DNA from: Pseudoalteromonas obscura
GTDB taxonomy: Bacteria > Pseudomonadota > Gammaproteobacteria > Enterobacterales > Alteromonadaceae
Reading direction: 5' to 3'
Length of the DNA stretch: 32,000 nt
Assembly: GCF_030135505.1 (NCBI RefSeq)
Contig: NZ_JASJUT010000017.1
Coordinates: 11,658 to 43,657 of the forward strand
Each line of letters opens with the position of its first letter. Within the stretch, counting starts at the first letter, position 1. Below the pieces are notes generated by a model. The model was not told the origin of the DNA. It made no database searches and was given only the letters and a program-made list of their open reading frames with translations. Made by a program: the position numbers and the translations under genes. Below are positions 1 to 30,310 of the stretch, one piece after another.

Positions 1-1969
1 TCGGGTTTTGGTTGACCACATGTTGTGCGATAAAATACTCACTGCCGGTCAAAGGTATAATCGATTGCAAAGGCTTTAAATAAGACGCCGTCTGCTCGCG
101 CACAGGCGCTGCATTTTCAGCCAGCGCTTCAAGTTGCGCTAATGGTGGATAAGTACGCTCAACATCGGTGTCAGGTACCCAGTAACGCTGCTTTGCAAAG
201 GGGTATCCGGGTAAGCTCACTTTGTTTGGCAGTGCGCCATCATATAAGGCTCGCCAGTCAACTGGGTAACCTTGGATCCACAACCCTACCAAGGCGGGCC
301 AATCCACCTCAGACAAGAGATCAGCATAGACTAGATTATTGGCAGTAATAAATGCATCCAACGCTTTGCCTTTGATAATTTCTCCATACCAGCGCTGGGT
401 CGGTTTGCTAATGTCATCAAATTGATGTTCTAGAACATCGGCGAGTTGCTGGGTAAGCTCATCCATTGAATTTGCTGCGAGGGCAAGTCGGTGCTCATGA
501 TGCGCTCTACCAACTTGCAAAGTACTGGCGATACTGCGAAGGTCCTGCACATCGTGGACACTCTGACCGGTGTGTTCAAGCGTGGTGTGCAATCGCCTTA
601 CCGCTCTGTGCAGCTGCTCAGTACTTTTAGCCGACAACACGATATAACTTGGCACAGATGCGGATTGTTGCTCAACGGGGGTCTCTGCGACATACTCCTC
701 AACCACCATATGTGCATTTGAACCGCCAGCGCCAAATGCTGAGATACCCGCTACGCGCTTTTTCCCCTCAGCAACTTGCCACGGCTGTGCTTCACGTGGC
801 ACGTCAAACGGAGAGTTATCAAAATCAATATAGGGGTTGCGTGTTTGTGAGTGAATAGAGGGGGCAATGGTTTTATAGCGCATTTGCAGCAAAACCTTCG
901 TTAATCCGGCAATGCCTGATGCACTTTCACAGTGACCAATATTAGATTTGATAGAGCCTATCAAACACGCCGCTTCGCCCTGCGCATTCTTGGCCAGATA
1001 ACCCTCGTTATATGCCCTTTGTAAACCATCGACTTCAATCACATCTCCAATTGCGGTGCCTGAACCGTGCGCCTCAATATAACTGATGGGATCAGACGCC
1101 GTTTTTGCCAACGCTTGGCTTATTACCTCTGCCTGCGAAGATGCTTTTGGTACGGTATACGTTCTCGACGCGCCGCCATGGTTGATGGCCGTCGCTAGGA
1201 CCACCCCATAGATATGATCACCATCTTCGAGGGCATCAGCGAGGGGTTTGAGCAACACAGCCCCAACGCCTTCTGAAGCCACATAGCCTGTCGCTTTATC
1301 CCCAAAACTATGACAGCGCCCAGTTTTCGATGAAAAACGCCCCGCACTATGTAAAATAAACTTATTGGGGTGCAGTGTTAGGTTGACGCCACCTGCGATG
1401 GCGGCACGGCACTCGCCGTTTAAAATACTTTGACACGCTAAGTGTACCGAGCTGATGGAGCCCGAGCACATGGTATCAATGGTCATGCTAGGACCGGTAA
1501 AATTACAACAGTAAGACACCCCATTAGTAATAGAAGCATTGAGTGCAGAAACCGGTGTATTGGCCTGACTGTACATCAAATATTCATTGTACTCTACCGC
1601 GCAAAATACCCCTACAGGCCCTCTCTCTGAGAGCCCTTCACACGAGTATCCAGCATCTTCAACAGTGTGATAGGCACACTGGAGAAATTGCCTTTCTTGA
1701 GGATCGGTCAGCTCGGCGACTTTTGGCGCCATATTAAAGAACAAGGGGTCAAATTGATCTACATCATTGATGAATCCACCCCATTTACTATAACTTTTAC
1801 CATACACCCGGTTACCTGGCTGATGATACAAAGCGTGATCCCAACGCGTTTTGGGTATTTCCGTGACGGTATCTTTGCCTTGTTTGAGGTTTTCCCACAA
1901 TTCATCTAGGTTGTCTGCGCCTGGGTATTTTCCTGATATCCCAATGATCGCTATTTTTTGGTTGCTCAC
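1..1969 (-). CDS. Trans-AT polyketide synthase, N-terminal part (KS domain, post-KS linker, first residues of a DH domain). The gene continues past the left edge. MmpD/TmpD-like.
   Basis: Absent from the supplied ORF track because it is open at the window edge. My own translation of the minus strand starts at GTG 1969-1967, with AAGGGGA about 6 nt upstream. It reads VSNQKIAIIGISGKYPGADNLDELWENLKQGKD... KS motifs found: DTMCSGS (active Cys), YIEAHGSGT, SNIGHCES, FGAGGSNAH. The linker ends LPGYPFAKQRYW. Near position 1 the sequence reads LTGSEYFIAQHVVNQNP, a DH HxxxGxxxxP-type start. No stop codon occurs down to position 1. Confidence 0.9.
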   Translation of the reverse strand, partial: MSNQKIAIIGISGKYPGADNLDELWENLKQGKDTVTEIPKTRWDHALYHQPGNRVYGKSYSKWGGFINDVDQFDPLFFNMAPKVAELTDPQERQFLQCAYHTVEDAGYSCEGLSERGPVGVFCAVEYNEYLMYSQANTPVSALNASITNGVSYCCNFTGPSMTIDTMCSGSISSVHLACQSILNGECRAAIAGGVNLTLHPNKFILHSAGRFSSKTGRCHSFGDKATGYVASEGVGAVLLKPLADALEDGDHIYGVVLATAINHGGASRTYTVPKASSQAEVISQALAKTASDPISYIEAHGSGTAIGDVIEVDGLQRAYNEGYLAKNAQGEAACLIGSIKSNIGHCESASGIAGLTKVLLQMRYKTIAPSIHSQTRNPYIDFDNSPFDVPREAQPWQVAEGKKRVAGISAFGAGGSNAHMVVEEYVAETPVEQQSASVPSYIVLSAKSTEQLHRAVRRLHTTLEHTGQSVHDVQDLRSIASTLQVGRAHHEHRLALAANSMDELTQQLADVLEHQFDDISKPTQRWYGEIIKGKALDAFITANNLVYADLLSEVDWPALVGLWIQGYPVDWRALYDGALPNKVSLPGYPFAKQRYWVPDTDVERTYPPLAQLEALAENAAPVREQTASYLKPLQSIIPLTGSEYFIAQHVVNQNP

Positions 1970-2069
1970 TCCGATCCCCTTCTGTCAATATTTTGCACCG
2001 CCCCAAACCCAAGCTTTTACCAAGCACCGTGGTGACGATTAAATGCTTTTCTGTGCGTACTTCGCGTGT

Positions 2070-2903
2070 TTAATGGCCGTTTAAAATTAAGTCTTCGCAG
2101 ACCTCTGCGGTGTCGGTAAACAGATTGTAATGCCCCCAATTAGCAAAAATTTTATATTCGGCATCCGGAATAATTTCGGCAAGCGCCACGGACTCTTGCC
2201 AGGCGACCATATCATCGTTACCTCCACCGACAATGAAGGTTGGGCAGCTGATCTGTTCCGTTAAGGTGCGACTGATCTTAAATTCGTGGGTGGTATTGAC
2301 CAGATGGGCAAACCGTAGAAACGCCTCTTTACCGCTATTGAACGGTGCTTGGATCATCTGTTGGTAGTGCTTATTATCAATACGCGCCAATTTGTCTTGC
2401 ATGCTTTTGGTGTTATACGCCACGATGTTTTGATGGAGAAAATCAAGCTTCTTCTCATCGTGGATCAACATGCGGCAAACCTGACCTATGGTATCGCCCG
2501 TGAGCCCCGGCGTGCCTTGATTAAAGAAATTTGGCGCATTGAATAGCACCATTTTTTCGATTAAACATGACTCTTGTGCCGCAGCAACCAACGCAATTTG
2601 GATTCCCGTACACCACGCAACCAAGGTGAACGAGGGCAAGGCTAACTCGGTCACAATACTGGTTAAGTCTTGAACTTGATCCTGTACGGAATACTCGCGA
2701 AAACGCTCATCGTATACACCAGGAAACCCCCGGCGTCGCCAGGTCACAAAGTTATGACCGCGCGCCACCATGGCATCTGACAACGCCTGTGTAATACAGC
2801 TGTCGACACCCAGCGCATTGATGAAGACCACTGTAGGCTTGGTGTTATCAAACTGATTGAGGTTAACGTCCAGCATTAATCCGTCATGTGCTTGTACTTT
2901 CAT
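2070..2903 (-). CDS. Alpha/beta-fold hydrolase (MupL-like) with an apparent Cys nucleophile
   Basis: 277-aa ORF. The oxyanion region is VVFINALG. The nucleophile elbow reads LVAWCTGIQ, a Sm-x-Cys-x-Gly pattern where GxSxG is expected. The acid region is GGGNDDMV and the His is in NWGHYN near the C-terminus. The ATG overlaps the upstream stop in an ATGA junction (2900-2903). Confidence 0.85.
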   Translation of the reverse strand: MKVQAHDGLMLDVNLNQFDNTKPTVVFINALGVDSCITQALSDAMVARGHNFVTWRRRGFPGVYDERFREYSVQDQVQDLTSIVTELALPSFTLVAWCTGIQIALVAAAQESCLIEKMVLFNAPNFFNQGTPGLTGDTIGQVCRMLIHDEKKLDFLHQNIVAYNTKSMQDKLARIDNKHYQQMIQAPFNSGKEAFLRFAHLVNTTHEFKISRTLTEQISCPTFIVGGGNDDMVAWQESVALAEIIPDAEYKIFANWGHYNLFTDTAEVCEDLILNGH

Positions 2904-5900
2904 AGAGGTGTTTCCAGTTCCAAATTTTGCTGCGCAGATTGCGCGGTCGATTGATGTGAGCTCGGCAAGTTATCTATCTTTGACCAAATATCGCAACTGC
3001 GATCTTGCCATGCATCCACAAATGAACTCTGGCGCTCATTATACGCCTGCTCAGCCGCCAGCTTGTCGCGCCCTCTGAGCTTAAAGTACTCATCCGTCGC
3101 ACTGGCATAGGCGGATATGGCCAGTACAGCTCCCATACCCGCTACAGGTGAACCCGTTCCCGACGCATCCCCGGTAAGCATGATGTTTTTACTGATAAAG
3201 GTACTCGCCCGTGAATATTGCACATCTATGGGTTTGCTGATCCACAACACCTCTCCTACCGAATTTTGCTGTGAGTCACTGAAGAATTGCGCACGCTGTG
3301 CAAGCTGCTCTGCGCTTGGCAGTTCACCATTAGCACTGTACACCGCTACACCTAGTTCATCACGATTTGGATAAAAGAGCCCGAATGCACAACCTGATAA
3401 CTGTTGTTCAGCATCAAAAGAGAATTTGTAGTTAAGTGTTGATCTATCTCCAACGGCACGGCAATGATAGATATACCAGCACTCCTCTCCCTTATTGGAC
3501 GTTTCAATGTCGTAACATATCCCCACAGCCTGCGCATTTGAACTGCACTCGCCATCGGCTAAGATCACCAATTCTGGCGTGACAGTGGAAGTTGACTCCA
3601 ACTGTAAATTATTCAATGTTACGCTGGCTTGCTCAAGCTCTGTCGGCACCACTTTTGCTTCCACATTAAAGTAAATACGCACGCCCTGTTCACGTGCAGC
3701 AATCAGCAGTACATCTTGCAGATCAGCCAAAGAGATAGCCAATACAGACTCGCCCACAAACTCATCATAGGCACTCTTATGGGAGGTACCAGCCGCTGTG
3801 AGTTGGGTCGTCGCTAACTGTGCCTCATCTATCTCTTTTTGATAATAACGCGTAGACTCATTGTCACTGCGGGTATAAAAGAAGTTGTGCTGTGCTATCG
3901 GCGTGCCGCGCTCGATAAGCTGCGTCAGTACACCAAAGCGTTGTAAATAAGGCAGTGCGTTTTGATATATGGTGACCATTTGCATCCGGTCAACGGCCTT
4001 GCGTTTATCAAACAAGTAAACCCGTTCCACCCCATTGAGCACGGCGCTCAACGCTGCCATGATCCCTGCCGGACCTGCACCGATCACCACCACACTGTGT
4101 TCATCAATCTCGTCTAACAACTGTGTGGCGCTGTTCTCGTATTCAAAGCGGTAACCACTGCTCGTGGCCTGAGAGATATAGCCCGGAAGGTCACTTGGCA
4201 TTTGCTTGGCCCCTACCGTCTGAGCCGGTGCTGGTTGCACGCGTTCAATCACTGTAATCAGATCAGACACACTGTCGGCTTGAAGTAACTCACTGCCCAC
4301 TTGAGCTTCGTCGAGTTGTTCAATACCATCGCAAAGCGCAGACACTATCAACATTTTGGTCACTGACGTGACACCTAAGGCTTTGAGTGGCGTTGTCAGA
4401 TGTAGCTCATCACGGCTAAGACCTAAGATTTGTCCAACCGTCTCTACCACTAACTCAGCCACTTCCGTTTGATGTGATGGCTGCACCGCATTGGCATCAC
4501 TGGCCTGCGCAATATCAGTTTCAGACAATGCTGGTTGAGCCGGTGTATCTATCTGCTGTGCACTGTTCAGTGATGGTTTTTGCGCCGCTTTGGGTAGCCA
4601 ACAATGACGACGCGCAAACGGATAAGTCGGCAATGCAATGATCTGAGGCAGGACACTATGTTGCTCACCATAAAGAGACGCCCAACTCAGCTGTCCTCCT
4701 TGCACCCATAACTTGGCCTGTTTTAACAATTCAGTATCGTTCTCAACGTCTAGCTCAATGGATGCATGGCGCGACGTGTGTTCAATATCATGAAAAAAGA
4801 CCTGCGCCTGTGCCTTACCATCTAGCCACGCTGCGAGGTATTCACGTAACTGTTCTATGGTGTTAACCACACAACTCAACCGAGTCGGCATGGCCTCTCT
4901 GCCTTCTATCAGCGTATACGCTAAATCGTCGAGATGAATGTCTTGCTCCGTGCTGAAATGCTCCATATGACGTGTCACCAACTCCTTGAGACGTGTCTCA
5001 TTTTGCGCTGAAAACACCATTACTCGATCACGGCGTACACCTTCTACTTTGGTTGCTGATTTTGCAGTTAGACACTCCTCTAGCACCATACAACAACCCG
5101 AACCACCTGCACCCAAGGTATTGATCATCGCACTTCTGGGCTGCTCAGCTGCTGTCGTCCACGGGGCAAACTTGTCTTGGATAGTAAATGGAGCATTGTC
5201 TAAATCGAGTTTGGGATTAAGTGGCGTATGCAAGATCGAAGGGGTCAATACCCTGTGCTTCAACTGCATGGCGACTTTGATTAGCTGCGTCAACCCTGAT
5301 GCAGCTTCAGCATGGCCGATACTCGATTTAACGGTGCCTATGGGCAGTTTTCTATTACCTAGGGCGTCACAAAACACCTGCTTCATCGCTTGAATTTCAG
5401 CGCTGTCTGACACCGTCGCGCCCGCAACTGAAGTTTCAACATAGTGTATCTGCTGGGGCGTCACTTTGGCCGTTTGCAGGCACCCGGCCATTAAGCGTGT
5501 TAGAGCATCGGGATCAGAGACATTAAATCCATCCGTAGTGCCTTTATGGTCGGTATGCACGCCTTTGATCACGGCCAGTACTTCATCATTATCTTGTATC
5601 GCATCACGCAAAGGCTTCAATAACACCGCACCGACCGTCTCGGCGGGAATAAACCCACCTGATTCACCAAACCCTCGCACAGTACTTTGCTCAGCCAGCA
5701 ATTGAGACTGACTTAACGCCTGATATTTGTAGCCGTGAATAGATAAATTAGTGGCCCCCACAATGGCTAGCCGACAAGCCCCACTGAGTAGGTTTTGACA
5801 GGCAAGATAAATTGCACTGGCAGCCCCCGAGCACATGGTGTCCACCGCCATGCTTGGTCCATGCAGGTCAAAAAAGTGAGAAATACGGTTGGCCATGCTA

Positions 5901-7207
5901 GAGAGCGATGACATGGCCACCATCGCTTTTTTATCTTGCTCGGTGTCAAAAGCATGATACTGCTGATACATAGATGCGGTGTAGACTGCCACCTTGTGAT
6001 CGTATTGTTGTGCCAATTTTTGTTTGGTGTAGCCGCGACTTTCCAGTAGGTTCCAAACCTCTTCTAAGAGCAATCGCTCTTGTGGGTCCATCAACTGTGC
6101 TTCGCGCGGGGAGATCTTAAAAAATAGTGGATCGAACTTATCAACTCCGTGAATAAACCCACCCCAACGACATGCCAACGCAGCACTTTCAGAGCCAAAT
6201 AACGCCGCTCGCTCCTCGGGAATATCAATAACACAATCCATGCCTTGTTGCAGGTTTTGCCAAAATTTAGCAACGTTTTCAGCCTCTGGAAAACGCCCCG
6301 CGACACTGACGATCGCGATATCTTGCTCAGACACCGATGCTGCTGTAGTGTCACGATGCGCTGCACTCTCAGTGCGCTCGCTGTGCGCTTTGGTCTCACT
6401 CGGGGCGCTATCCATTGCATTGGATGCGCGAGCTGGTGCGGAGCTTGGCTGGCCGAATAGCCGCTTAATATTGTCCGTCACCTCAGGTTGATGCATGGTC
6501 TGAGCATGCATAGCTAGCTCTTGCTCAATAAATGTTGGCAGCTTGTCGCGCACCTGCTGACAGAGGTGTTTTTTCAATAGAGAGACTGAGCGCAGCGGCT
6601 TTTGGGCGATTAAGTCAGCCAGTTCGTAAGCTCGACTTAGCACGCTTTTGCGCGGCAGTACTTGCAGCCCCACCCCGCGTTGTTGTAATTCATCACCGCG
6701 ATATTGATTGGCACTCAATAACATCTCACTGCCCAGATCCACGCCCAGCTTGGTGGGCACTATCAAGGTCGACCCCATCCCAGGGGTAAACCCATATTTC
6801 ATAAAGTTGAGGGTGTAATAGCTCTCTTTGCTGAGCAACACGATGTCGGAGAATAACCCCATCACAAATCCGCCGCCGATGGCGTGGCCCTGAATGGCAG
6901 ATATCACTGGCACCCGACACTCTAATGGCAAGCTATAAATATTGACGTCGCTAAAGTTGCCCTGTGTGTCATTTAACGACAACAGGCTATCCTGAGTGCC
7001 ACCACTACAAAAATAGCTGTCGAAGCCGGTGATAATGACCGCTTTGCAAGTTCGATTTTCCTCTATTTTTTTATACGCTTGCATCAACCCTGACAAAATA
7101 TCACGGCTAAACATATTTTTATTGTCACGGTCTTCCATGGTGATCTGGACAACACCGTTATTCTGCTCGATGATGGAAACAACCGAGTTGATGATTATTT
7201 TTGTCAT
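2900..7207 (-). CDS. Multidomain PKS-associated protein: enoyl-CoA hydratase (ECH2, decarboxylase type), non-elongating KS0, ACP and FAD-dependent monooxygenase (a MupK+MmpE-like fusion)
   Basis: - ECH fold at the N-terminus: VIITGFDSYFCSGG, AIQGHAIGGG.
- KS, about 5075-6330: the Cys is present (DTMCSGAAS, codon 5831-5833). The EAHGTGT motif is replaced by ETSVAGA, with Ser at the His position (5429-5431).
- ACP: LGVTSV, Ser codon 4364-4366.
- Flavoprotein monooxygenase, about 2903-4110: VVIGAGPAGIMAA, ILADGECS, TGDASGTGSPVAGMG.
- Start: I prefer ATG 7207 (MTKIIINS...), which lies 4 nt after the upstream stop, over the track's start at 7255. Confidence 0.9.
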   Translation of the reverse strand: MTKIIINSVVSIIEQNNGVVQITMEDRDNKNMFSRDILSGLMQAYKKIEENRTCKAVIITGFDSYFCSGGTQDSLLSLNDTQGNFSDVNIYSLPLECRVPVISAIQGHAIGGGFVMGLFSDIVLLSKESYYTLNFMKYGFTPGMGSTLIVPTKLGVDLGSEMLLSANQYRGDELQQRGVGLQVLPRKSVLSRAYELADLIAQKPLRSVSLLKKHLCQQVRDKLPTFIEQELAMHAQTMHQPEVTDNIKRLFGQPSSAPARASNAMDSAPSETKAHSERTESAAHRDTTAASVSEQDIAIVSVAGRFPEAENVAKFWQNLQQGMDCVIDIPEERAALFGSESAALACRWGGFIHGVDKFDPLFFKISPREAQLMDPQERLLLEEVWNLLESRGYTKQKLAQQYDHKVAVYTASMYQQYHAFDTEQDKKAMVAMSSLSSMANRISHFFDLHGPSMAVDTMCSGAASAIYLACQNLLSGACRLAIVGATNLSIHGYKYQALSQSQLLAEQSTVRGFGESGGFIPAETVGAVLLKPLRDAIQDNDEVLAVIKGVHTDHKGTTDGFNVSDPDALTRLMAGCLQTAKVTPQQIHYVETSVAGATVSDSAEIQAMKQVFCDALGNRKLPIGTVKSSIGHAEAASGLTQLIKVAMQLKHRVLTPSILHTPLNPKLDLDNAPFTIQDKFAPWTTAAEQPRSAMINTLGAGGSGCCMVLEECLTAKSATKVEGVRRDRVMVFSAQNETRLKELVTRHMEHFSTEQDIHLDDLAYTLIEGREAMPTRLSCVVNTIEQLREYLAAWLDGKAQAQVFFHDIEHTSRHASIELDVENDTELLKQAKLWVQGGQLSWASLYGEQHSVLPQIIALPTYPFARRHCWLPKAAQKPSLNSAQQIDTPAQPALSETDIAQASDANAVQPSHQTEVAELVVETVGQILGLSRDELHLTTPLKALGVTSVTKMLIVSALCDGIEQLDEAQVGSELLQADSVSDLITVIERVQPAPAQTVGAKQMPSDLPGYISQATSSGYRFEYENSATQLLDEIDEHSVVVIGAGPAGIMAALSAVLNGVERVYLFDKRKAVDRMQMVTIYQNALPYLQRFGVLTQLIERGTPIAQHNFFYTRSDNESTRYYQKEIDEAQLATTQLTAAGTSHKSAYDEFVGESVLAISLADLQDVLLIAAREQGVRIYFNVEAKVVPTELEQASVTLNNLQLESTSTVTPELVILADGECSSNAQAVGICYDIETSNKGEECWYIYHCRAVGDRSTLNYKFSFDAEQQLSGCAFGLFYPNRDELGVAVYSANGELPSAEQLAQRAQFFSDSQQNSVGEVLWISKPIDVQYSRASTFISKNIMLTGDASGTGSPVAGMGAVLAISAYASATDEYFKLRGRDKLAAEQAYNERQSSFVDAWQDRSCDIWSKIDNLPSSHQSTAQSAQQNLELETPL

Positions 7208-7211
7208 TGTT

Positions 7212-7991
7212 TTAACTTTCCCATGGCAGCTTGCCGCTGTCCACATAACGTCCAATATTGGTTACCACAGAAGGCAAAGAAAACGTTGCTCGATTTTCCT
7301 GTACCGCGATCGGCTCGTGTTCAAGTAATTGTGGGTTCAATGTATTCATATAGTGTTTGTGCCGTATTATGCCATCACGAGGTAAGCGTCTTAGACGCAG
7401 TAAATGTCGTCTTAGCAACTCATCTAAGTCATCGGACACGGCGTCCGCCAGTCCCCAATTGGCAACATCGTGGGCGTTAAAAGGGGAGGTCATCAAGGTC
7501 ATATAGTTGGCTTTTTGCCAGCCAACTTTTTTGATCAAAAATGGCATGACACAGGCGGGCAAAATTCCAAAGATGAGTTCTGACAAACTATATTGTGCGC
7601 GACTACCTGACAATACAATGTCACATGCTGCAACAAATCCCATCCCGCCGGCATTGACCCGACCTTCAACCACGGCAATGGAGATAAATGGTCCCAGCGC
7701 AATTCGCTTCCACAGCGTGTACAGTATACTTGGGTCGTGTTCACTACCCTGCTGGTTGTCTGTGTACTCTTGTTTGTCCATCCAAGAAAAGTCAGCGCCG
7801 AAACAAAACACGTCCGGCAGTCCTTTGATAACCAATATGTTGCTGCGCAACTCGCAGTCGTCGATCACCCGCAGGCACTCTTCAATCATTTGCTTATTCA
7901 AAGTATTCTTATGGTTAGGTCGGTTAAATTGAAGCGTACATATCTCCGCATTATGACTAACCTTGATCATCTCATACGTCACGATTGACAC
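7212..7991 (-). CDS. Enoyl-CoA hydratase/isomerase family protein, ECH1 dehydratase of the beta-branching cassette (MupJ-like)
   Basis: 259-aa ORF with a crotonase fold: LQFNRPNHKNTLN, FCFGADF, VEGRVNAGGMGFVAACD. It sits between the HMGS and the ECH2 domain. The start is GTG 7991, the first codon after an in-frame stop. ATG 7970 (MIKVSH...) is an alternative. Confidence 0.88.
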   Translation of the reverse strand: MSIVTYEMIKVSHNAEICTLQFNRPNHKNTLNKQMIEECLRVIDDCELRSNILVIKGLPDVFCFGADFSWMDKQEYTDNQQGSEHDPSILYTLWKRIALGPFISIAVVEGRVNAGGMGFVAACDIVLSGSRAQYSLSELIFGILPACVMPFLIKKVGWQKANYMTLMTSPFNAHDVANWGLADAVSDDLDELLRRHLLRLRRLPRDGIIRHKHYMNTLNPQLLEHEPIAVQENRATFSLPSVVTNIGRYVDSGKLPWES

Positions 7992-19835: not shown

Positions 19836-19838
19836 AAC

Positions 19839-21510: not shown

Positions 21511-21568
21511 GAAATATCAGCTTATCGCTACAGCATAATGAACTCTAATTAAAGGTTACTTTGGCAGA

Positions 21569-24500
21569 ATGAACGGCAATACTCTCGATACAGATCAGAA
21601 TACATTTTCCTTTGTTGATGCGGAACGAAAAGTCCTTGATTTTTGGGAAAAACAGGATATTTTTCAGAAATCTCTTCGTCAAACAGCCAACAATCCACCC
21701 TATGCATTTTACGATGGTCCTCCATTTGCAACTGGTAAACCACACCATGGGCATCTGCTGGCATCCACCATTAAAGATATTATCCCTCGCTACTTTACGA
21801 TGAAAGGTTATTACGTCCAACGCCGTTTTGGCTGGGATTGTCATGGCCTACCTATTGAGCATGAAACCGATAAAACCTTGGGTATGTCAGCCAAAGAGGC
21901 CGTTGAGACCTTAGGGATCAAAGCATACAATGATGAATGTCGAGGTATCGTTCAACGCTATACTAAAGAGTGGCGCTCTACCGTTACACGCATTGGCCGC
22001 TGGGTCGATTTTGATAATGATTACAGAACCATGGAACCTTGGTACATGGAGTCTGTATGGTGGGTGTTCAAACAACTTTGGGAAAAAGACCTTATCACCC
22101 AAGGCGTCAAAGTTGTGCCGTTTTCTACCACTTTAGGCACCGTTTTATCTAACTTCGAAGCGGGCTCTAACTACAAAGATGTGCAAGATCCTGCACTTGA
22201 AGTGTTGTTCAAATTAGAAGACGAAGACTGCTATATCGCAGCGTGGACCACCACACCTTGGACTTTACCTTCCAACTTGGGACTGTGCGTCAAAGCCGAT
22301 GCCGACTACATAAAAGTGTTAGATGAAGATAAAGATATACACTTTATTATTGCCAAAGCGCGCCTTGAAGCCATAGGTAAAGGGAAAAACTTAACTGTAG
22401 TGCAAGAATATACAGGCGCGGAATTGGTCGGAAAACGCTATGAGCCGCTCTTTGATTATTTCAAAGAACTAAAGAATGAAGGCGCATTTGTTGTCCTTGC
22501 TGACGATTATGTCACCATGGACAGTGGTACGGGTATCGTACATATCGCACCAGCATTTGGTGAAGACGATAACCGCGTCATGAAAGAGGCAAATATTCAA
22601 GCCGTTGTGTGCCCTTTGAATATGGTTGGCGAGTTTACCGAAGAAGTGACGGACTTTAGCGGAATGCACGTCAAAGAAGCGGATAAGAAAATCATTCGCC
22701 ACTTAAAAGAAACAGGCCACCTGTACAGCCACACCACCATAGTGCACAGCTACCCGTTCTGCCCGCGTTCTGACACGCCGATCATCTACCGCTCTATTCC
22801 ATCATGGTATGTCAAAGTAGAGCAGATGCGCGACAAGCTCGTGGCATTGAATCAACAGATCAACTGGGTACCTGAATATATTAAAGAAGGCCGGATGGGG
22901 AACTGGTTGGCTGGCGCCATTGACTGGGCAGTCTCGCGAAACAGATACTGGGGAACACCGATTCCGCTGTGGCGCAACGACGTTACTGGCAACTATTTAT
23001 GTATTGGTTCAATTGAGGAATTGGAGCGCTATTCAGGGATCCGTGTCGATGACTTACACCGTGACTACGTCGATGATATTGCTTTCAGTGTGGCAGGTGA
23101 AGAAGGCACTTATCAGCGGATTGAGGAAGTACTCGATTGTTGGTTTGAGTCAGGCGCGATGCCGTATGCTCAGCTCCACTACCCGTTCGAAAATCAGTCT
23201 CTTTTCGAGTCCAGCTTTCCAGCTGAATTCATTGCCGAGGGACTAGACCAAACACGCGGTTGGTTTTATACCCTATTGGTATTAAGTCAGGCTTTACACG
23301 ATAAGCCCGCATTTAAGAACGTCATTGTTAATGGCATCGTGATGGCAGAAGATGGCAAGAAAATGTCGAAGCGCTTGCGCAACTACACTCAGCCAGATGA
23401 CATCATGGAAGAGTTTGGTGCCGATGCTCTACGCTTATATTTAATCAACTCAGGTTTGGTAAAAGGCGAACCACAACACTTTTCAAACGAAGGTGTGAAA
23501 CTGACCGTTCGTCGTGCCTTGCTGCCTTGGTGGAATGCTTTTAAGTTCCTGAAGACCTATATAGAAATCGACGGGTGGAAACCTTCAAATACCGCGCACA
23601 CAATCACCAATCCGTTGGATCATTGGATACTGTCCAAGCTGCAAACATTGAAGTTAAAGGTCACCACGGAGATCGAAAACTATCAGTTATATAACGTGAT
23701 CCCGGTGTTGTTTGAGTTTATTGAGCAATTGACCAACTGGTATATCCGCCTCAATCGCTCGCGCTTTTGGGCTGAAACACTGACTGAAGACAAGGCATGT
23801 GCATATCAGACGCTGTACACCTGTATCTATGAATTGAGCTTGGCCATGGCACCGTTTGCGCCGTTCTTGTCAGAGCATATCTATCAAGAGATGCTAGCCT
23901 TACAAGATCATGGGGAGCAACCTGAGTCAGTGCACTTGTGTGCATATCCAACCGTGGATGAAGCACTCATTCAGCCAGAGCTTGAAGATGCACTTGCGCT
24001 ATTACAAAACGTCGTGTTGCTAGGTCGTCAAAAGCGTAATAAAGAGCGGATCAAGACCAAAATCCCTCTAATGAGCCTAACAGTGATCCATCGCGATACA
24101 GGTCTCCTTCAAGAGATCAAGAAGTTAGAGTCTTACTTACAAACAGAGCTGAATGTAAAATCAGTCGTCTATCGTGAAGACGAAGACTCCTTTATCAATT
24201 TCTACGCCAAGCCAAATTCACCTTTGCTGGGCAAAAAGTTGGGTAAATCATTTAAGCAATATAAAACGCTTATTGAGGCACTCACTGGTGAGCAGTTACG
24301 TCAATTAGAGAAAGACGGCAGCATTGAACTTGAGGGCATGCGCTTCGACAAAGAAGAAATCCTCACTTTCCGTGAACCAAAAGAAGGCTCAGAAGTCATT
24401 TCTGATAGCTATATTTCCATTGAACTGGACTGTAAACTCAACGAGGAGTTATTGGCTGAGGGTCTGGCCCGTGAAATCGTTAATCGTGTTCAAAAAACAC

Positions 24501-24715
24501 GTAAGCAGCTTGATTTTAAGATCGAAGACCGTATTCATGTCGAATATGCATGTGATCAAGCACTCGACGCCGCTATCGCTGCACATACAGACACCATCTC
24601 ATCGGAGACATTGGCATTGAGCTTTGAAAAGCGCGATATCGCATCTGATGACACGGTTGCGCGTTATGATGTAGAGGGCCATACGCTATTGCTTAAGTTG
24701 AGTAAGGCGACATAA
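21569..24715 (+). CDS. ileS: Isoleucyl-tRNA synthetase, eukaryote-like type 2 (MupM/TmlM-like putative self-resistance enzyme)
   Basis: 1048-aa ORF. The HIGH region is YAFYDGPPFATGKPHHGHLL, the PPFATG..H.GH form typical of type 2/eukaryote-like IleRS rather than the PYANG..HIGH form of gammaproteobacterial IleRS1. KMSKS is present as GKKMSKRLRNY. Class Ia editing-domain and anticodon-binding regions are present (WTTTPWTLPSN, DQTRGWFY). I saw no C-terminal Cys-rich zinc motif. Confidence 0.95.
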   Translation: MNGNTLDTDQNTFSFVDAERKVLDFWEKQDIFQKSLRQTANNPPYAFYDGPPFATGKPHHGHLLASTIKDIIPRYFTMKGYYVQRRFGWDCHGLPIEHETDKTLGMSAKEAVETLGIKAYNDECRGIVQRYTKEWRSTVTRIGRWVDFDNDYRTMEPWYMESVWWVFKQLWEKDLITQGVKVVPFSTTLGTVLSNFEAGSNYKDVQDPALEVLFKLEDEDCYIAAWTTTPWTLPSNLGLCVKADADYIKVLDEDKDIHFIIAKARLEAIGKGKNLTVVQEYTGAELVGKRYEPLFDYFKELKNEGAFVVLADDYVTMDSGTGIVHIAPAFGEDDNRVMKEANIQAVVCPLNMVGEFTEEVTDFSGMHVKEADKKIIRHLKETGHLYSHTTIVHSYPFCPRSDTPIIYRSIPSWYVKVEQMRDKLVALNQQINWVPEYIKEGRMGNWLAGAIDWAVSRNRYWGTPIPLWRNDVTGNYLCIGSIEELERYSGIRVDDLHRDYVDDIAFSVAGEEGTYQRIEEVLDCWFESGAMPYAQLHYPFENQSLFESSFPAEFIAEGLDQTRGWFYTLLVLSQALHDKPAFKNVIVNGIVMAEDGKKMSKRLRNYTQPDDIMEEFGADALRLYLINSGLVKGEPQHFSNEGVKLTVRRALLPWWNAFKFLKTYIEIDGWKPSNTAHTITNPLDHWILSKLQTLKLKVTTEIENYQLYNVIPVLFEFIEQLTNWYIRLNRSRFWAETLTEDKACAYQTLYTCIYELSLAMAPFAPFLSEHIYQEMLALQDHGEQPESVHLCAYPTVDEALIQPELEDALALLQNVVLLGRQKRNKERIKTKIPLMSLTVIHRDTGLLQEIKKLESYLQTELNVKSVVYREDEDSFINFYAKPNSPLLGKKLGKSFKQYKTLIEALTGEQLRQLEKDGSIELEGMRFDKEEILTFREPKEGSEVISDSYISIELDCKLNEELLAEGLAREIVNRVQKTRKQLDFKIEDRIHVEYACDQALDAAIAAHTDTISSETLALSFEKRDIASDDTVARYDVEGHTLLLKLSKAT

Positions 24716-24731
24716 CCTAACACTATCCAGT

Positions 24732-25141: not shown

Positions 25142-26563
25142 ATGTCAGTGGCGACAAGCTATTTGACAATATATGAGCAACCAAAAAAGGAAGCTAACCC
25201 AGTGGATAGAACATGGATTTTGGATCGCGTAAAACAGTTCGATGAGACCCTTGCGGTTGTTGAAGAAGATAAATGCATTACCTTTGATGCAATTGCCCAA
25301 AGCGCTCACAATTGGCTGACCAATGAGTCGATCACAGAACGCAGTATCATTGTCATCAATGGATTATTTAACGCAACGACGTTGGGGTTGATGCTTTGTG
25401 CCTATATCAAGCAATGCACAATCGTGCCATTATTTAATAGCGATGCAACGCATGTAGACACGATCATTGACACGGTTCATCCAGATTTACTGTGTGACAC
25501 ACGCGACGACATCATGTACTGCAGCACGATAGCCCCCTTTGCAACCACCAAGCCTGCATTATTAAAGCAACTGAATACATTGGGAGAATCTGGACTGATC
25601 TTATACAGCTCTGGCAGCACAGGTACACCCAAAGCCATTTTACTCAGCTTAGACAAGCTTTTGCAGCGTTATCAAGTTCACAAAGAGCACCCCACCTCCA
25701 CCATCGCAGGCTTTTTGTTTTTTGATCACATTGGCGGTTTTGATGTCTTGATGCAGTGCCTAATGACAGGATGCACCTTGGTCAGCATGACTAAACGCAC
25801 CCCTGAAGATGTGTGTCAGGCCATTGAAAAACATCGTATCAATGTATTACCCACTACGCCGACTTTTCTCAACATGGTGTTGATCAACCGCAGCTATCAA
25901 CGTGTAGATCTAAGTTCACTTACCGTGATTGCATATGGCTCAGAAGTCATGCCACAAGCAACACTCGACTTGCTGCAACAAGCGTTGCCGCATGTCACGC
26001 TAAAACAAACATATGGTATGAGCGAGCTGGGGGTTTTACCCACAGAGTCGAAGGCAGGCAACTCACTGTGGCTAAAAATAAAAAAAACCGACTACAAAGT
26101 GCAGGATGGCGTGTTGTGGGTCAAATCGCCAACGGCCATGCTTGGTTACCTCAACCAAGATCATGCGCCATTGAATGATGGGTGGCTGTGCACTGGGGAT
26201 TTGGTGGAGCAACAGGGGGACTATATTCGCATTCTGGGGCGCCAGAGCACAGTGATAAATGTCGCGGGTGAAAAGGTATTTCCGGCCGAAATTGAAGCCT
26301 TCCTATTACAAATTCCATTTGTAAAGAATTCATCAGTCTGGGGGAAAAAGAACCCGATCACCGGAAAAATTGTCGCAGCGACAATTTACACTGATGAAGA
26401 AGTCGATCCGAAGCAGGCAAAAAAACATATTTTAGATATCTGTAAGCGAACCTTAGCCCCCTACAAAATTCCAAGACACTTCGAATTTGTAAATGAGCAG
26501 TATCATAGCGAAAGGTTTAAAAAAATCAATAAGATACAAGGAACACAAACCAGTGGAAAATAA
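25142..26563 (+). CDS. AMP-dependent acyl-CoA/acyl-ACP synthetase (adenylate-forming ligase, MupQ-like)
   Basis: 473-aa ORF with adenylation core motifs: LYSSGSTGTPKAILLS, QTYGMSELG, WLCTGDLV, INVAGEKVFPAEIE, PYKIPRHFEFV. ATG 25142 has no obvious SD. An in-frame GTG at 25202 is preceded by AAGGAAG 8 nt upstream and is an alternative start. Confidence 0.9.
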   Translation: MSVATSYLTIYEQPKKEANPVDRTWILDRVKQFDETLAVVEEDKCITFDAIAQSAHNWLTNESITERSIIVINGLFNATTLGLMLCAYIKQCTIVPLFNSDATHVDTIIDTVHPDLLCDTRDDIMYCSTIAPFATTKPALLKQLNTLGESGLILYSSGSTGTPKAILLSLDKLLQRYQVHKEHPTSTIAGFLFFDHIGGFDVLMQCLMTGCTLVSMTKRTPEDVCQAIEKHRINVLPTTPTFLNMVLINRSYQRVDLSSLTVIAYGSEVMPQATLDLLQQALPHVTLKQTYGMSELGVLPTESKAGNSLWLKIKKTDYKVQDGVLWVKSPTAMLGYLNQDHAPLNDGWLCTGDLVEQQGDYIRILGRQSTVINVAGEKVFPAEIEAFLLQIPFVKNSSVWGKKNPITGKIVAATIYTDEEVDPKQAKKHILDICKRTLAPYKIPRHFEFVNEQYHSERFKKINKIQGTQTSGK

Positions 26564-27278
26564 AAAGGGTACAATTGTGATCAGCGGTGGAAGCCGAGGG
26601 TTGGGGTTCGAAATCGCGTCCCAATTTTTGCAGCAAGGATATACCGTTGCGACATTTTCAAGAGGCAGTACTGAGCATGTAACAGCACTTGCAGATGATC
26701 CACGCTTTTTTTGGAAGTCGGTTGATGGCAGTGACTATCAGGCTCTAACCGAATTTCTCAAAGAAGCTCAGCAGCGACTCGGCAATATTGTTGGCCTGGT
26801 CAACAATGCCGCCATTGGTGCGGATGGGGTGCTCAGCACAATGCGTACATCTGACATTGACCGGGCGTTGGATGTGAACCTCAAAGCACAGATCTATCTA
26901 TCAAAATTAGTTTCGAAGAAGCTCTTGCAAAACCGCGATGGGTTTATCATTAATATCTCTTCCATCATGGGCGTAAGAGGGTTACCTGGTGTTTCAATTT
27001 ACAGTGCCACAAAAGCGGCAATGGATGGCATGACCAGAAGCTTAGCGAAAGAGCTAGGCAGAAAAGGGATCCGTGTCAACTCTGTCTCTCCGGGCTATTT
27101 TGCCAGTGACATGGTGAAAGATCTGTCAGATGACATTTTAGGTAAAATTGAGCGCCGTACACCGCTAGGGCGCTTAGGTACACAGAGTGAGATTGCCAAG
27201 TTGGTGCTATTTTTAGCAACTGAGGGGCAATTTATCACCGGGCAAAACATCGTCATAGATGGAGGTTTTACATGTTAG
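26553..27278 (+). CDS. Short-chain dehydrogenase/reductase, 3-oxoacyl-ACP reductase-like (MupS-like)
   Basis: Motifs: Rossmann GGSRGLG, NNAAIG, catalytic ISSIMG and YSATKAA, PGYFASDM. The track's ATG at 26493 would overlap the ligase gene by 71 nt and add an atypical N-terminal extension. GTG 26553 (VENKKGTIVISGG), with AAGGA about 10 nt upstream, gives the usual spacing before the glycine motif. Confidence 0.88.
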   Translation: MENKKGTIVISGGSRGLGFEIASQFLQQGYTVATFSRGSTEHVTALADDPRFFWKSVDGSDYQALTEFLKEAQQRLGNIVGLVNNAAIGADGVLSTMRTSDIDRALDVNLKAQIYLSKLVSKKLLQNRDGFIINISSIMGVRGLPGVSIYSATKAAMDGMTRSLAKELGRKGIRVNSVSPGYFASDMVKDLSDDILGKIERRTPLGRLGTQSEIAKLVLFLATEGQFITGQNIVIDGGFTC

Positions 27279-27607
27279 ACACACAACAAGTTAAAAATGA
27301 GGTGTTGGATAGTATTATCCAAGAGGTGGCCACAATACTGTCTGAAAAGTCGCTGCCGATCACACAACTGGAAAGCGCTACAGCATTTTCTGAATTGTCA
27401 TTAACGTCTCTGGATTTGGCCGAACTGATCAGCAATCTAGAAGCGCGCTATGAAGTTGACCCATTCGAGGAATTGGTTGCCATCACCAGTGTCGTTACCA
27501 TAGATGATCTCGCTGCGGCTTATACGCTGGGCTTATCAGGTCAACCTGAGGGGACACATGACGCCCTCAGCGAAGAGCTAAAAGCCATAAAGAATCAAAC
27601 ACGGTAA
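27272..27607 (+). CDS. Discrete acyl carrier protein (mAcpD-like)
   Basis: 111-aa ORF with the motif LSLTSLDLAELI and helical ACP spacing. It overlaps the SDR stop by 7 nt. Confidence 0.8.
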   Translation: MLDTQQVKNEVLDSIIQEVATILSEKSLPITQLESATAFSELSLTSLDLAELISNLEARYEVDPFEELVAITSVVTIDDLAAAYTLGLSGQPEGTHDALSEELKAIKNQTR

Positions 27608-27740: not shown

Positions 27741-29990
27741 ATGATGGCTACAGATGATATAGCAATTGTCGGGCTCGCTTGCCGATTTCCAGAGGCAAGT
27801 TCTCCGGCCCAGTTTTGGCAAAACTTAGCACAGGGACGGGAGTCCATAGCAAGATTATCCGACGCGCAATTACGCAACGCAGGTGTCAGCGACAGCGAAT
27901 TTGAGCAACCCAGTTACGTCAAAGCATATACCCCCCTTGCCGATATCGACAAGTTTGATGCGCGCTTTTTTGGGATCCCAGCAGCAGAAGCAAAGTTAAT
28001 GGACCCACAACAGCGGACCTTGCTTGAAATTATCTATCACGCTTTAGAAGATGGCGGCGCTTTGCAAACAGCGCAGCAGAGAGAAACTGGTGTCTATGCA
28101 ACTGGTGGCGGGATCACCCGTAGCTATCTTTATCAAGAAGCGACAAAGCACTTTAAGGGCAATAGTGATACCGGCAGCTTGTTACAATTACTCAACGATA
28201 AAGATTTTCTTGCGACACGGGTATCCTACAAATTAAATTTACAAGGCCCCAGTCTCTCCGTGCAAACAGCCTGCTCAAGCTCCATGGTTGCAGTTCACTT
28301 GGCAAGAAGCGCATTACTGAGCGGAGAAATCGATATCGGTATCGCCGCAGCCAGCTGTATCAGACTACCACAAGAACGGGGCTACAATGCCGCAGAAAGT
28401 ATGATCTACTCACCAACCGGTCGCTGTAGAACATTTTCAGACGACGCCGATGGCACCATTTTTGGCAGTGGCTCAGGCGCAGTGGTACTCAAACGTTATC
28501 AAGACGCACTGGCCGATGGCGATCATATTTATGCACTGCTCAAGTCAACCGCGGTCAATAATGATGGGGCTGGAAAGTTTGGGTTTACCGCTTCCAGTGT
28601 GCCAGGTCAAGCCAAGGCCATGGTTAAAGCTATCGCATTGGCGGGGATCAGTGCGGACCAGCTCAGCTATATTGAATGCCATGGCACTGCGACCAAAATA
28701 GGCGACCCACTGGAGATCCGCTCGCTCGAAAAAGCATTTTCACTGGATACCGATAAAAAACAATTTTGTCATATCGGTAGCGTCAAACCGAATATAGGTC
28801 ATTTAGAGCAGGCGGCTGGACTTGCCAGCCTCATCAAACTTGCGCTGATGATAAAACATCGTCGGCTTGTGCCCACTATTAATTTTCGCGCACCCAACCC
28901 GAAATTAAAATTGCCACAATCCCCCTTTAAAATGGCACTCGACTATGAAATGTGGGAACCCGAACAACAGCGGTGCTACGCCGGGCTGAACTGTTTGGGT
29001 GTGGGGGGCACCAATGTATTTGCCATTCTCAGCGATCTCCCCACCACCGACGCGACAGCATCCAATGACAACAACCTAGTTGAACCTGCACAAGATGTGT
29101 TGTGTCTGTCAGCCAAAACGAAAACACAGCTCGTCGAATATATCGAGTGTATCGCAAACGATGAACGGCCTTTGCCACTGTGTGCCCTCGCCTACAACAT
29201 CAATACCAGCCGTGCACATTTACCAATACGTAATACAGTGGTGATTGACCGGGATATGAGTATAGGACAGTGGCGCGAACAAGCCTTGACCAAGATCGCG
29301 GCGTCCAGCGAGCGGCGTGGAACGACATTTGATAAACCAATCCAGTATATATGTAACCCCACAGAATTCGTTCATGCCAGCCAAGTAGCTACACTGGCCG
29401 CTGACATGCGCTGCCAATGTTTTACAGATGCCTATCAACGCTGGATGGACAGTGCAGCGCTCACTCTCATAAGTGACTCCACGGCCCCCTTTACACAGCA
29501 CGTGGCGAAATTGTTGGCATTTGAACTGGCATTGTATGAGCAGTTAAAGCACTGGGGATTAAAGATGGCATCATTTCTTGGTGAGGGAATAGGTCGATAT
29601 GCGCAACTGTTGTTGGAAAATGTCCCCTCGCAACAGTGGCTCAGTACGCTGGAAAAAGAACTACATATACATCACGATAATTTAAACCACGCACAAACTC
29701 ATAGCTTTTCTCAGATGGGTGAAGTGGCCATTGAGCAAGATCTACACCTCGCAAGTGAAGGCCCGATAATTTATCGCAATCGTCCTTTACATAACCTCAC
29801 AGATGATGTGTATGTCTGTGCCAGCGAACAGTTTACTACCACCGAACTGTGGTCCCTGCTTGCCACGATTATCGACAAAGGCGCGCAAATTAACTGGCAA
29901 AACTACTATCCTCTCAAGGCTTTTGAAAAACATACTTTACCCAACTATCCATTTGAGAAGAAACGCTATTGGTTGGTTGATGAAGACTAA
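27741..29990 (+). CDS. Stand-alone type I ketosynthase with a C-terminal vestigial acyltransferase/linker region (MmpF-like)
   Basis: 749-aa ORF with a complete KS: VQTACSSS, IECHGTAT, PNIGHLEQAAG, LGVGGTNVF. The C-terminal third aligns by eye to the N-terminal half of an AT: LLAFELALYEQLKHWGLKMASFLGEGIGRYA matches the pattern LFA.E.AL..LW.SWG......GHS.GE..A. The GHS triplet is replaced by ASF. The protein ends with the post-AT linker LPNYPFEKKRYW. Confidence 0.9.
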   Translation: MMATDDIAIVGLACRFPEASSPAQFWQNLAQGRESIARLSDAQLRNAGVSDSEFEQPSYVKAYTPLADIDKFDARFFGIPAAEAKLMDPQQRTLLEIIYHALEDGGALQTAQQRETGVYATGGGITRSYLYQEATKHFKGNSDTGSLLQLLNDKDFLATRVSYKLNLQGPSLSVQTACSSSMVAVHLARSALLSGEIDIGIAAASCIRLPQERGYNAAESMIYSPTGRCRTFSDDADGTIFGSGSGAVVLKRYQDALADGDHIYALLKSTAVNNDGAGKFGFTASSVPGQAKAMVKAIALAGISADQLSYIECHGTATKIGDPLEIRSLEKAFSLDTDKKQFCHIGSVKPNIGHLEQAAGLASLIKLALMIKHRRLVPTINFRAPNPKLKLPQSPFKMALDYEMWEPEQQRCYAGLNCLGVGGTNVFAILSDLPTTDATASNDNNLVEPAQDVLCLSAKTKTQLVEYIECIANDERPLPLCALAYNINTSRAHLPIRNTVVIDRDMSIGQWREQALTKIAASSERRGTTFDKPIQYICNPTEFVHASQVATLAADMRCQCFTDAYQRWMDSAALTLISDSTAPFTQHVAKLLAFELALYEQLKHWGLKMASFLGEGIGRYAQLLLENVPSQQWLSTLEKELHIHHDNLNHAQTHSFSQMGEVAIEQDLHLASEGPIIYRNRPLHNLTDDVYVCASEQFTTTELWSLLATIIDKGAQINWQNYYPLKAFEKHTLPNYPFEKKRYWLVDED

Positions 29991-30037
29991 CGTTGTTACA
30001 CCTAGACTAACAAAAGATACAAGGAGCATGAAATAAC

Positions 30038-30310
30038 ATGAGTAACGCAGCAACAGCTAGAACATTGGTAATTAGCTTTATTGAAGAAATGAATCGTTCA
30101 TCACTACGTGGAGACGAGATCCAAAATGACTTTGAGCTAAAAGATAAACTTAATATCGATTCATTAAACAAGCTCATTTTACTGACCCGAGTCACAGAGC
30201 ACTTAGGTATTGAGTTTGGCACAGCCGATAAAACCATTAATGACTTCACCACAGTCAACGATCTGATCTCATTTGTTGAATCACACACCTCAGCACTAGA
30301 AGTGTCGTAA
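30038..30310 (+). CDS. Discrete acyl carrier protein (mAcpE-like)
   Basis: 90-aa ORF with the motif KLNIDSLNKLIL. AAGGAG lies 11 nt upstream of the ATG. Confidence 0.8.
   Translation: MSNAATARTLVISFIEEMNRSSLRGDEIQNDFELKDKLNIDSLNKLILLTRVTEHLGIEFGTADKTINDFTTVNDLISFVESHTSALEVS

Follow-up and report, generated by a model that had tools for sequence, protein, structure and literature searches.

The mupirocin (mup/mmp) gene cluster of Pseudomonas fluorescens NCIMB 10586 encodes a polyketide synthase (PKS) whose acyltransferase (AT) acts in trans, together with a resistant isoleucyl-tRNA synthetase (IleRS) of type 2 (IleRS2). In Pseudoalteromonas, the closest described systems are the thiomarinol plasmid pTML1 of Pseudoalteromonas sp. 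(rava) SANK 73390 (FN689524; Fukuda et al. 2011, PMC3069032) and the clusters of P. luteoviolacea 2ta16 and NCIMB1944, strains in which thiomarinols A-D were detected (Maansson et al. 2016, PMC5069768). Here, a stretch of 32,000 nucleotides from Pseudoalteromonas obscura (contig NZ_JASJUT010000017.1, positions 11,658 to 43,657 of the forward strand; "the window", numbered from its first letter) is compared with these systems. Very probably, the window is part of a circular pTML1-type plasmid of ~97.9 kb that encodes the thiomarinol pathway of P. obscura P94. A sequence-only reading had placed it in the already known pseudomonic-acid (mupirocin/thiomarinol) class, and the features of that class are present, namely modules without AT, a β-branching (HCS) cassette, a MupA-type enzyme, non-elongating ketosynthase (KS0) modules and a MupQ-MupS-type cassette. 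The locus represents a further copy of a system already known, not a new kind of system.

A megablast search of PLSDB with the window matched one record, pTML1 (NC_015708.1), at ~78% nucleotide identity. Gene order and orientation are colinear, gene for gene, with the pTML1 annotation: tmpB'-tmlL-tmpE-tmlJ-tmlH-tmlG-tacpC-tmpA-tmlA on the minus strand and tmlM-tmlQ-tmlS-tacpD-tmpF-tacpB on the plus strand. Identities of the single proteins to their pTML1 counterparts, determined by tblastn, span 66-92%. TmlH (92%), TmlM (91%), TmlL and TmlS (89% each), TmlA (88%) and TmlJ (85%) are at the upper end, followed by TacpD (82%), TmlG and TacpC (81% each), the N-terminus of TmpB (80%), TmlQ (75%), TmpF (73%, its C-terminal part being least conserved), the last acyl carrier protein (ACP), TacpB (71% to the open reading frame that ends the pTML1 unit), TmpA (68%) and TmpE (66%). 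The divergence sits mainly in linkers, ACP regions, the C-terminal region of TmpF and the C-terminal half of TmpE; the ketosynthase (KS) cores share 85-96% identity with the KSs at matching positions of pTML1, and no domain has been gained or lost. Shared with pTML1 are also the fusion of an enoyl-CoA hydratase (ECH) to TmpE, the ACP triplet of TmpA, the KS0 positions, a KS with Ser in place of Cys, a divergent promoter with a conserved palindrome, the tmlM IleRS2 gene, the parAB neighbourhood and a replicon of ~98 kb. The two differ by small indels in the ACP linkers and the promoter region, and in the spacer between tacpB and parB, which is 1.2 kb long with a remnant resembling an insertion sequence (IS) in the window and 0.66 kb long in pTML1.

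TmpE places the cluster on the thiomarinol side, as the sequence-only reading had preferred. It matches Pseudomonas MmpE-type proteins (P. orientalis, Pseudomonas sp. BRG-100) at only 41-42% over ~78% of its length, against 66% for pTML1, so that the similarity to Mup and Tml proteins on which the class assignment depended was found on both sides. The Pseudomonas proteins have no ECH, and the ECH fusion is therefore specific to the Tml lineage.

The earlier reading had also suggested that near-identity in BLASTN would mean a known cluster, and that protein-level similarity with another domain layout would mean a new congener pathway. The window lies in between, with ~78% nucleotide identity and an identical layout. 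A pathway of similar proteins with an altered domain layout, building a different backbone, would draw some support from this nucleotide divergence and from TmpA, TmpE and TmpF, which are 66-73% identical to pTML1 with indels in their ACP linkers. Such a pathway is improbable, given the same domains, domain order and KS catalytic patterns as in pTML1, the conserved KS cores, and ~91% nucleotide identity to the P. luteoviolacea makers of thiomarinols A-D. The common layout and the close match to the P. luteoviolacea cluster identify the locus as an orthologue of the known pathway rather than a new one.

An alignment of all KS domains of the window and pTML1 extends this agreement to the active sites, the pattern of each window KS being identical in pTML1. 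The first KS of TmpA keeps its Cys, and the His of the HGTGT motif is replaced by Gln (EAQGMGN), which makes it a KS0. The second and third KSs of TmpA have intact Cys-His-His triads, as do those of TmpB and TmpF (QTACSSS, HGTAT and NIGH in the latter). In TmpE, the Met-Cys pair is kept and the first catalytic His is replaced by Ser (ETSVAGA), again giving a KS0. The Cys column of TmlG is Ser in the window and in pTML1, as expected for a decarboxylating KS. The ACP triplet noticed earlier is indeed present at the C-terminus of TmpA, which has five PP-binding domains, three of them with GLDS...W sites at residues 2733, 2835 and 2934. The Trp is at Ser+6 and is lacking at this position in ACP1 and ACP2; it reportedly flags acceptor ACPs of β-branching (Haines et al. 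2013). An extra ACP in TmpA, relative to the two of MmpA, has been described for pTML1 (PMC3069032), and a Met-Cys KS0 has been reported only for MmpE and TmpE (PMC7619045). The sequence-only reading had taken domain fusions and dead domains as what distinguishes this copy. In both the KS alignment and the domain layout they are all shared with pTML1, the inactive KSs residue for residue, and they are thus traits of the family and not of this copy.

Directly beyond TmpB, to the left of the window, the identical contig described below encodes TmpC (1109 aa; Acyl_transf_1 and NMO domains). TmpC and the rest of TmpB can both be read there, in line with the expectation that the trans-AT and remaining modules lie outside the window. 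The TmlU orthologue of P. obscura (WP_284138796.1) is found on a 97,982-bp contig, and the window proteins are likewise on a 97,982-bp contig. On the corresponding contig of MMG009, a P. luteoviolacea-group isolate, TmlU (marinolic acid-CoA ligase) sits between TmpD and a HolA-type non-ribosomal peptide synthetase (NRPS) with condensation, adenylation and peptidyl carrier protein domains (C-A-PCP), and the same arrangement occurs in P. luteoviolacea. Together with the thiomarinols A-D of P. luteoviolacea, the TmlU orthologue and these arrangements suggest that the replicon belongs to the full hybrid (thiomarinol) type. Positions 1-32000 contain only polyketide, fatty-acid and resistance genes and nothing pyrrothine-specific, and could be read as a mupirocin-type cluster limited to pseudomonic or marinolic acids and lacking the pyrrothine hybrid. 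Such a cluster is very unlikely in view of the P. obscura TmlU orthologue, the MMG009 plasmid with TmlU beside a C-A-PCP NRPS, and the Tml-specific ECH-TmpE fusion, ACP triplet and pTML1 gene order, all of which were found.

All open reading frames within the window are intact, and their catalytic residues are kept. The ratio of non-synonymous to synonymous substitution rates (dN/dS) was taken from P. obscura versus P. luteoviolacea, because dS versus pTML1 is saturated (proportion of synonymous differences, pS, ~0.75). Whole-gene values for the window genes are 0.03-0.12, and the AT-like C-terminal region of TmpF reaches 0.28. An IS-like remnant adjoins the cluster, tmpE is broken in a genome labelled Alkalimonas, and a copy labelled Vibrio is flanked by IS and integrase genes, all of which would suit a silent or decaying relic that no longer makes the antibiotic. 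Against this, the intact reading frames, kept catalytic residues and purifying selection make decay highly improbable, and in plate assays P. obscura P94 inhibits Vibrio coralliilyticus, an effect whose cause has not been assigned.

The replicon context is that of a plasmid. Exact matches to the IleRS, TmpA, TmpF, TmlL and TmlH of the window are NCBI proteins of P. obscura / Pseudoalteromonas sp. P94(2023), encoded on the 97,982-bp contig, and the exact TmlL protein is recorded for both P. obscura and MMG009. Logan contig SRR24756419_75 (97,891 bp) matches the window DNA at 100% identity. Window positions 1-10613 correspond to the end of this contig and positions 10584-32000 to the contig start, the direct alignment beginning at 11569. 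The end and the start of the contig thus join inside the window and share 30 bp, from which a circle of ~97,861 bp follows. To the right of the cluster are parB and parA, with 78.7% nucleotide identity to parB-parA of pTML1. The adjoining parB and parA and the overlapping contig ends bear out the plasmid context recognised in the sequence-only reading. A chromosomal genomic island, for which the tmlM end on a 192-kb contig with other neighbours in the Alkalimonas-labelled genome might be cited, is extremely improbable in the face of the adjacent parB/parA, the spanned junction and the contigs of 97.85-97.98 kb in three assemblies, versus 97.6 kb for pTML1, a plasmid found by experiment to be circular and curable. 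Of this ~98-kb circular pTML1-type plasmid of P. obscura P94, the window covers the central third.

Several points weigh against the assignment of the thiomarinol pathway to this plasmid. The linker, ACP and TmpF C-terminal regions are just 37-60% identical to those of pTML1, and judged from these divergent regions the congener profile or titre might differ from that of pTML1. HolA was seen on the MMG009 and P. luteoviolacea plasmids and not directly on the P. obscura contig. The searchable literature contains no chemistry or genetics for P. obscura P94, and no link between this strain and thiomarinol was found there, the species description (IJSEM 2025) not being covered.

Close relatives of the plasmid are found under several host names. 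Over the 12.9 kb compared, the MMG009 contig (JAGJEH010000018.1, 97,850 bp) matches at 99.5% identity. Nucleotide identities are 98.6% for a contig with the label Vibrio sp. S9_S30, 90.9% for P. luteoviolacea NCIMB 1944 and 89.7% for a contig labelled Alkalimonas collagenimarina. The P. luteoviolacea 2ta16 and NCIMB1944 clusters have the same layout (TmpE 92% identical); they belong to another species, are on contigs of ~99.8 kb, so that the P. obscura replicon is ~2 kb shorter, and have a diverged tacpB-parB spacer. The GC content of the window is 47.6%, versus 44.0% for the homologous region of pTML1 and ~42% for P. luteoviolacea-group host genomes. In composition the plasmid differs from its host, and the AT-rich character on which the sequence-only reading had relied holds only relative to Pseudomonas.

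In the S9_S30 contig (contig00037), an IS630-like transposase lies on the left (1-820), and the right side (9754-13008) carries mobile-element genes, among them that of a tyrosine recombinase. In the Alkalimonas-labelled genome (contig 6, 9200-13464), the tmlM end is on the 192-kb contig, where its neighbours are a ParB/Srx-like gene and a phosphopantetheinyl transferase gene. Taking the host names as labelled, a tmlM-to-tacpB module with differing neighbours suggests that a plasmid typed as non-mobilizable has been rearranged and passed between genera. More distant thiomarinol-type clusters were observed in two further assemblies, L094 (Logan SRR19019140_6909, 84.8 kb) and L095 (Logan SRR32830374_2828, 62.9 kb). 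Their TmpE and TmlU proteins are 53-56% and 65-67% identical, respectively, and the order TmpA...TmpE-TmlL-TmpB-TmpC is kept. In L094, the place of tacpC and tmlG, which would be expected between TmpA and TmlH, is occupied by just a 51-aa open reading frame.

The cluster of the window is organised in two divergent arms, on the minus strand up to 20963 and on the plus strand from 21569, with a non-coding promoter region of 605 bp (20964..21568) between them. This agrees with the two divergent transcription units of the sequence-only reading, whose gene blocks (mupA-mmpA, HCS cassette-mmpE-mupL, mupM and mupQ-mupS-macpD-mmpF) are all in place. Its view that the modules lack an AT also holds, since a Pfam scan gave no Acyl_transf_1 match in TmpB', TmpE, TmpA or TmpF, the PKS proteins of the window. 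Two details had to be revised. The open reading frame at 30038-30310, which had been labelled macpE, is the counterpart of TacpB of pTML1, where the unit is named "tmlM to tacpB" and macpE has no tml equivalent (PMC3069032). At the left edge, bases 1-1969 had been passed over; they encode the N-terminal KS of TmpB. No Rfam match was obtained over the whole window at the gathering threshold.

From the gene content, domains, catalytic residues, orthology, replicon context and purifying selection described here we infer the enzymatic steps and the product, the roles in the leftward operon following orthology to studied Mup and Tml enzymes. The leftward operon begins with tmlA (19839..20963, minus strand), which encodes a MupA-type FMN-dependent luciferase-like monooxygenase (Pfam Bac_luciferase) that scores 424 bits against the curated NCBIfam model TIGR04020 (MupA/Atu3671 family; cut-off 244). 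It adjoins tmpA (10773..19835, minus strand; 3020 aa), whose product starts with a non-elongating KS0-ACP and has the order KS0-ACP / KS-KR-ACP / KS-ACP-ACP-ACP (three KS, one ketoreductase, KR, and five PP-binding domains in Pfam, with no AT); the KS0 is encoded at ~18399-19733 and the ACP triplet at ~10911-11738. TmlA and the KS0-ACP bimodule of TmpA would carry out α (C6) hydroxylation, and modules 5 and 6 of TmpA would complete the monic/marinolic acid backbone (from PMC3069032).

The HCS cassette follows on the minus strand and is complete, comprising an ACP, a KS with Cys replaced by Ser, an HMG-CoA synthase and two ECHs. TacpC (10510..10776; Pfam PP-binding) is the donor ACP, TmlG (9291..10532; Pfam KS) the decarboxylating KS, TmlH (8002..9267; Pfam HMG_CoA_synt_N and _C) the HMG-CoA-synthase-like enzyme (HCS) and TmlJ (7212..7991; Pfam ECH_1) the first ECH (ECH1). 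TmlG and TmlJ exceed the cut-offs of the NCBIfam models NF005490 (polyketide β-ketoacyl-ACP synthase; 571 bits, cut-off 445) and NF005498 (340 bits, cut-off 250), respectively. The second ECH (ECH2), equivalent to TmlK/MupK, forms the N-terminus of TmpE (2900..7207; 1435 aa; Pfam ECH_1, KS, PP-binding and FAD_binding_3), a single reading frame with the order ECH-KS-ACP-FAD, in which ECH2 is encoded at ~6443-7207, KS0 at ~5048-6337, ACP at ~4238-4492 and an FAD-dependent oxidoreductase (OR) domain at ~2903-4120. The cassette, consisting of TacpC, TmlG, TmlH, TmlJ and the ECH2 fused to TmpE, is predicted to form the C3 methyl branch on the ACP triplet of TmpA (from PMC3069032). MmpE/TmpE is regarded as an in-line KS0-ACP module to which the branched chain is passed (PMC7619045). 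The KS0-ACP of TmpE would then carry the chain into tetrahydropyran formation and esterification, followed by TmlL and TmpB. TmlL is a MupL-like α/β hydrolase (2070..2903; Pfam Abhydrolase_1), and the 5' part of tmpB (1..1969) encodes the N-terminal KS and its flanking subdomain (Pfam KS_N, KS_C and linker); tmpB runs off the left edge of the window, and complete TmpB, as read on the identical Logan contig, has 2766 aa.

On the plus strand, tmlM (21569..24715) is followed by a cassette with AMP-binding, SDR, ACP and KS domains in that order, as in MupQ-MupS-mAcpD-MmpF, to which corresponding functions can tentatively be assigned. The cassette consists of tmlQ (25202..26563, with the start as on the identical contig; MupQ-like adenylating enzyme or acyl-CoA ligase, Pfam AMP-binding), tmlS (26553..27278; MupS-like short-chain dehydrogenase/reductase, SDR, Pfam adh_short), tacpD (27272..27607; starter-unit ACP with a C-terminal extension, Pfam PP-binding) and tmpF (27744..29990; stand-alone KS with a shortened AT-like C-terminal region, Pfam KS). 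The arm ends with tacpB (30038..30310), a discrete ACP of 90 aa with a NIDSL serine motif and weak NCBIfam ACP matches. In the mupirocin pathway, MupQ, MupS and mAcpD make a hydroxy-acid starter, MmpF extends it and MmpB finishes the chain, and for thiomarinol a 4-hydroxybutyrate starter with one round on TmpF and one on TmpB has been proposed (PMC10098928). By analogy, TmlQ, TmlS and TacpD would make the hydroxy-acid starter, TmpF and the discrete ACPs would extend it towards the 8-hydroxyoctanoate side chain, and TmpB would complete it. TmpC is expected to load all extender units in trans, and TmlU and the hol NRPS genes elsewhere on the replicon would join the acid to pyrrothine. A promoter-like sequence (TTTACA-17-TACAAT, 24846-24874) was observed in the 486-bp gap between tmlM and tmlQ (24716-25201), in which no terminator-like site was seen; given this promoter-like site, the right arm may comprise more than one transcription unit.

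The mup cluster differs from this arrangement in several respects, in spite of the common trans-AT PKS, the IleRS2 resistance gene and the MupA-MmpA, HCS cassette-MmpE-MupL and MupQ-MupS-mAcpD-MmpF blocks. It is chromosomal and forms one long cluster, mupK is a separate gene and MmpA ends in an ACP doublet. In the mup system, the side chain is 9-hydroxynonanoate, built from a 3-hydroxypropionate starter, the MmpE epoxidase is active and a pyrrothine part is lacking; the system also includes mAcpE, MupD and MupE, which have no tml counterpart (PMC3069032, PMC10098928).

The OR domain of TmpE has been called non-functional, as thiomarinols keep the 10,11-alkene (PMC7619045). Its dN/dS of 0.126 is between the values for ECH (0.005) and KS0 (0.092) on the one side and those for the ACP (0.31) and the linker (0.47) of the same protein on the other, with 48.5 of 944 non-synonymous sites changed versus 88.5 of 274 synonymous sites (Fisher p = 7e-30). 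The FAD motifs GAGPAG, DG and GDxxGTGSP are kept. In all copies compared, Tml-type OR domains differ from the Mup type in having DGxC/NS in place of DGxRS and SPV/IxG in place of SPNAG. TmpE of MMG009 is 99% identical to that of the window, and the Alkalimonas collagenimarina protein (87% over 71% of the query) is a shortened form of 1020 aa; codon 1021 of its gene, precisely on the border between ACP and OR, is a stop, and 40 nt are deleted within the OR region. The more distant fused proteins of the two further assemblies comprise one with an OR domain (P0155, 53% identity) and one without (P0156, 56%); it is in the L094 lineage that the OR domain is wholly absent. The domain is constrained in some lineages and dispensable in others. 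Because the FAD motifs are kept and the domain evolves under purifying selection, the OR domain might not be dead in the Pseudoalteromonas plasmids and would then have an unrecognised catalytic or structural role; we consider this possible and rather doubtful, and the loss of the domain in two other lineages argues against it.

The IleRS encoded by tmlM (1048 aa; Pfam tRNA-synt_1, Anticodon_1 and DUF5915) scores 932 bits against TIGR00392 (NCBIfam IleRS model; cut-off 621). It gives 780-1099 bits with eukaryotic cytoplasmic IleRS and the 1032-aa IleRS of PDB entries 8C8U-8C9D, which we take to be IleRS2, and 262-321 bits with 1FFY and 920-aa IleRS chains, presumably of type 1. Scores of 730-740 bits are obtained with the NCBIfam models of the staphylococcal resistant IleRSs MupA and MupB. 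By these bit scores and the DUF5915 C-terminal domain, TmlM is classed as a type 2 (eukaryote-like) IleRS, as had been recognised from the sequence before. An altered signature motif, GXHH, has reportedly been found in hyper-resistant IleRS2; it was looked for in TmlM, and the canonical HHGH was found instead, together with canonical KMSKR. TmlM of pTML1 alone confers high-level thiomarinol resistance on E. coli (minimal inhibitory concentration ≥16 µg/ml; PMC3069032). With 91% identity to that protein, the tmlM gene of the window is a likely self-resistance gene, and its thiomarinol-insensitive product would protect the producer. The closest IleRSs outside the thiomarinol plasmids (62-67% identity) come from marine and freshwater metagenome-assembled genomes of Pseudomonadales, Pseudohongiellaceae, Azotimanducaceae and OM182 (loci L006-L082), and not from Pseudoalteromonas or from MupM of Pseudomonas. 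These relatives hint at the possible origin of the resistance gene.

The region upstream of tmlM has two conserved parts. A perfect palindrome, TTTGTCTCA-TGCG-TGAGACAAA, at 21210-21231 was also found by a stem-loop scan and is kept in the three aligned plasmids (window, pTML1 and P. luteoviolacea), with diverging flanks. The description of pTML1 (PMC3069032) suggested an operator role for inverted repeats of this spacer, and the palindrome is probably the "IR" operator candidate of that study. The ~100 nt before the tmlM ATG (~21470-21568) hardly vary among five lineages whose identity elsewhere is 78-99%. They contain TGGTATGAT, which is extended -10-like, and they persist in the Vibrio-labelled contig, where the IS630-like gene replaces the DNA further upstream. 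The conservation continues into the gene: the first 50 codons of tmlM have 7/49 synonymous changes versus pTML1, compared with ~22/47 in later bins. No fold signal for an RNA structure was obtained in this conserved 5' region (z = +0.73). A 10-codon upstream reading frame, MMKYQLIATA, was considered as a leader peptide of tmlM and rejected, because its start falls within the likely -10 element and it contains a single Ile codon. The invariant block could reflect selection acting on the nucleotides themselves or recombination over a short tract, and could be a conserved control element of the resistance gene. To our knowledge, no regulator gene has been recognised on the plasmid.

The right end of the window consists of the variable non-coding spacer of ~1.2 kb (30311..31510) and the 3' part of parB (31511..32000, minus strand; plasmid partition, Pfam PF08775 ParB), which runs past the window and is followed by parA. 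The spacer is absent from pTML1 and 67-76% identical to that of P. luteoviolacea; it had no DNA match in PLSDB, and its Pfam helix-turn-helix matches were sub-threshold only. It includes a decayed transposase-like remnant (~30620-30887, minus strand), a frame interrupted by stops that reads HTTIYHWVHRYAPTIGKRLWCFWKS, a stop and FGERFKDNEIHIKGKG, and also HTTIYHWVHRYAP followed further on by KRLWCFWKS and a stop. This remnant presumably resembles IS6-family transposases, to judge from the IS26 transposase sequence.

P. obscura P94 is a coral bacterium that inhibits V. coralliilyticus, protects coral and is being tested as a probiotic for corals. For the antibacterial activity of this strain, the plasmid is an obvious and testable candidate. 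Good descriptions of the class, of its chemistry and of its resistance mechanism already exist, and the locus adds little on how such systems work. At least six diverged copies are now at hand, from pTML1, P. luteoviolacea, P. obscura/MMG009, the Vibrio- and Alkalimonas-labelled genomes and the L094/L095 assemblies. This set can be used to study dispensable domains such as the OR domain of TmpE, the control of the resistance gene, and the intergenus spread of a plasmid typed as non-mobilizable.

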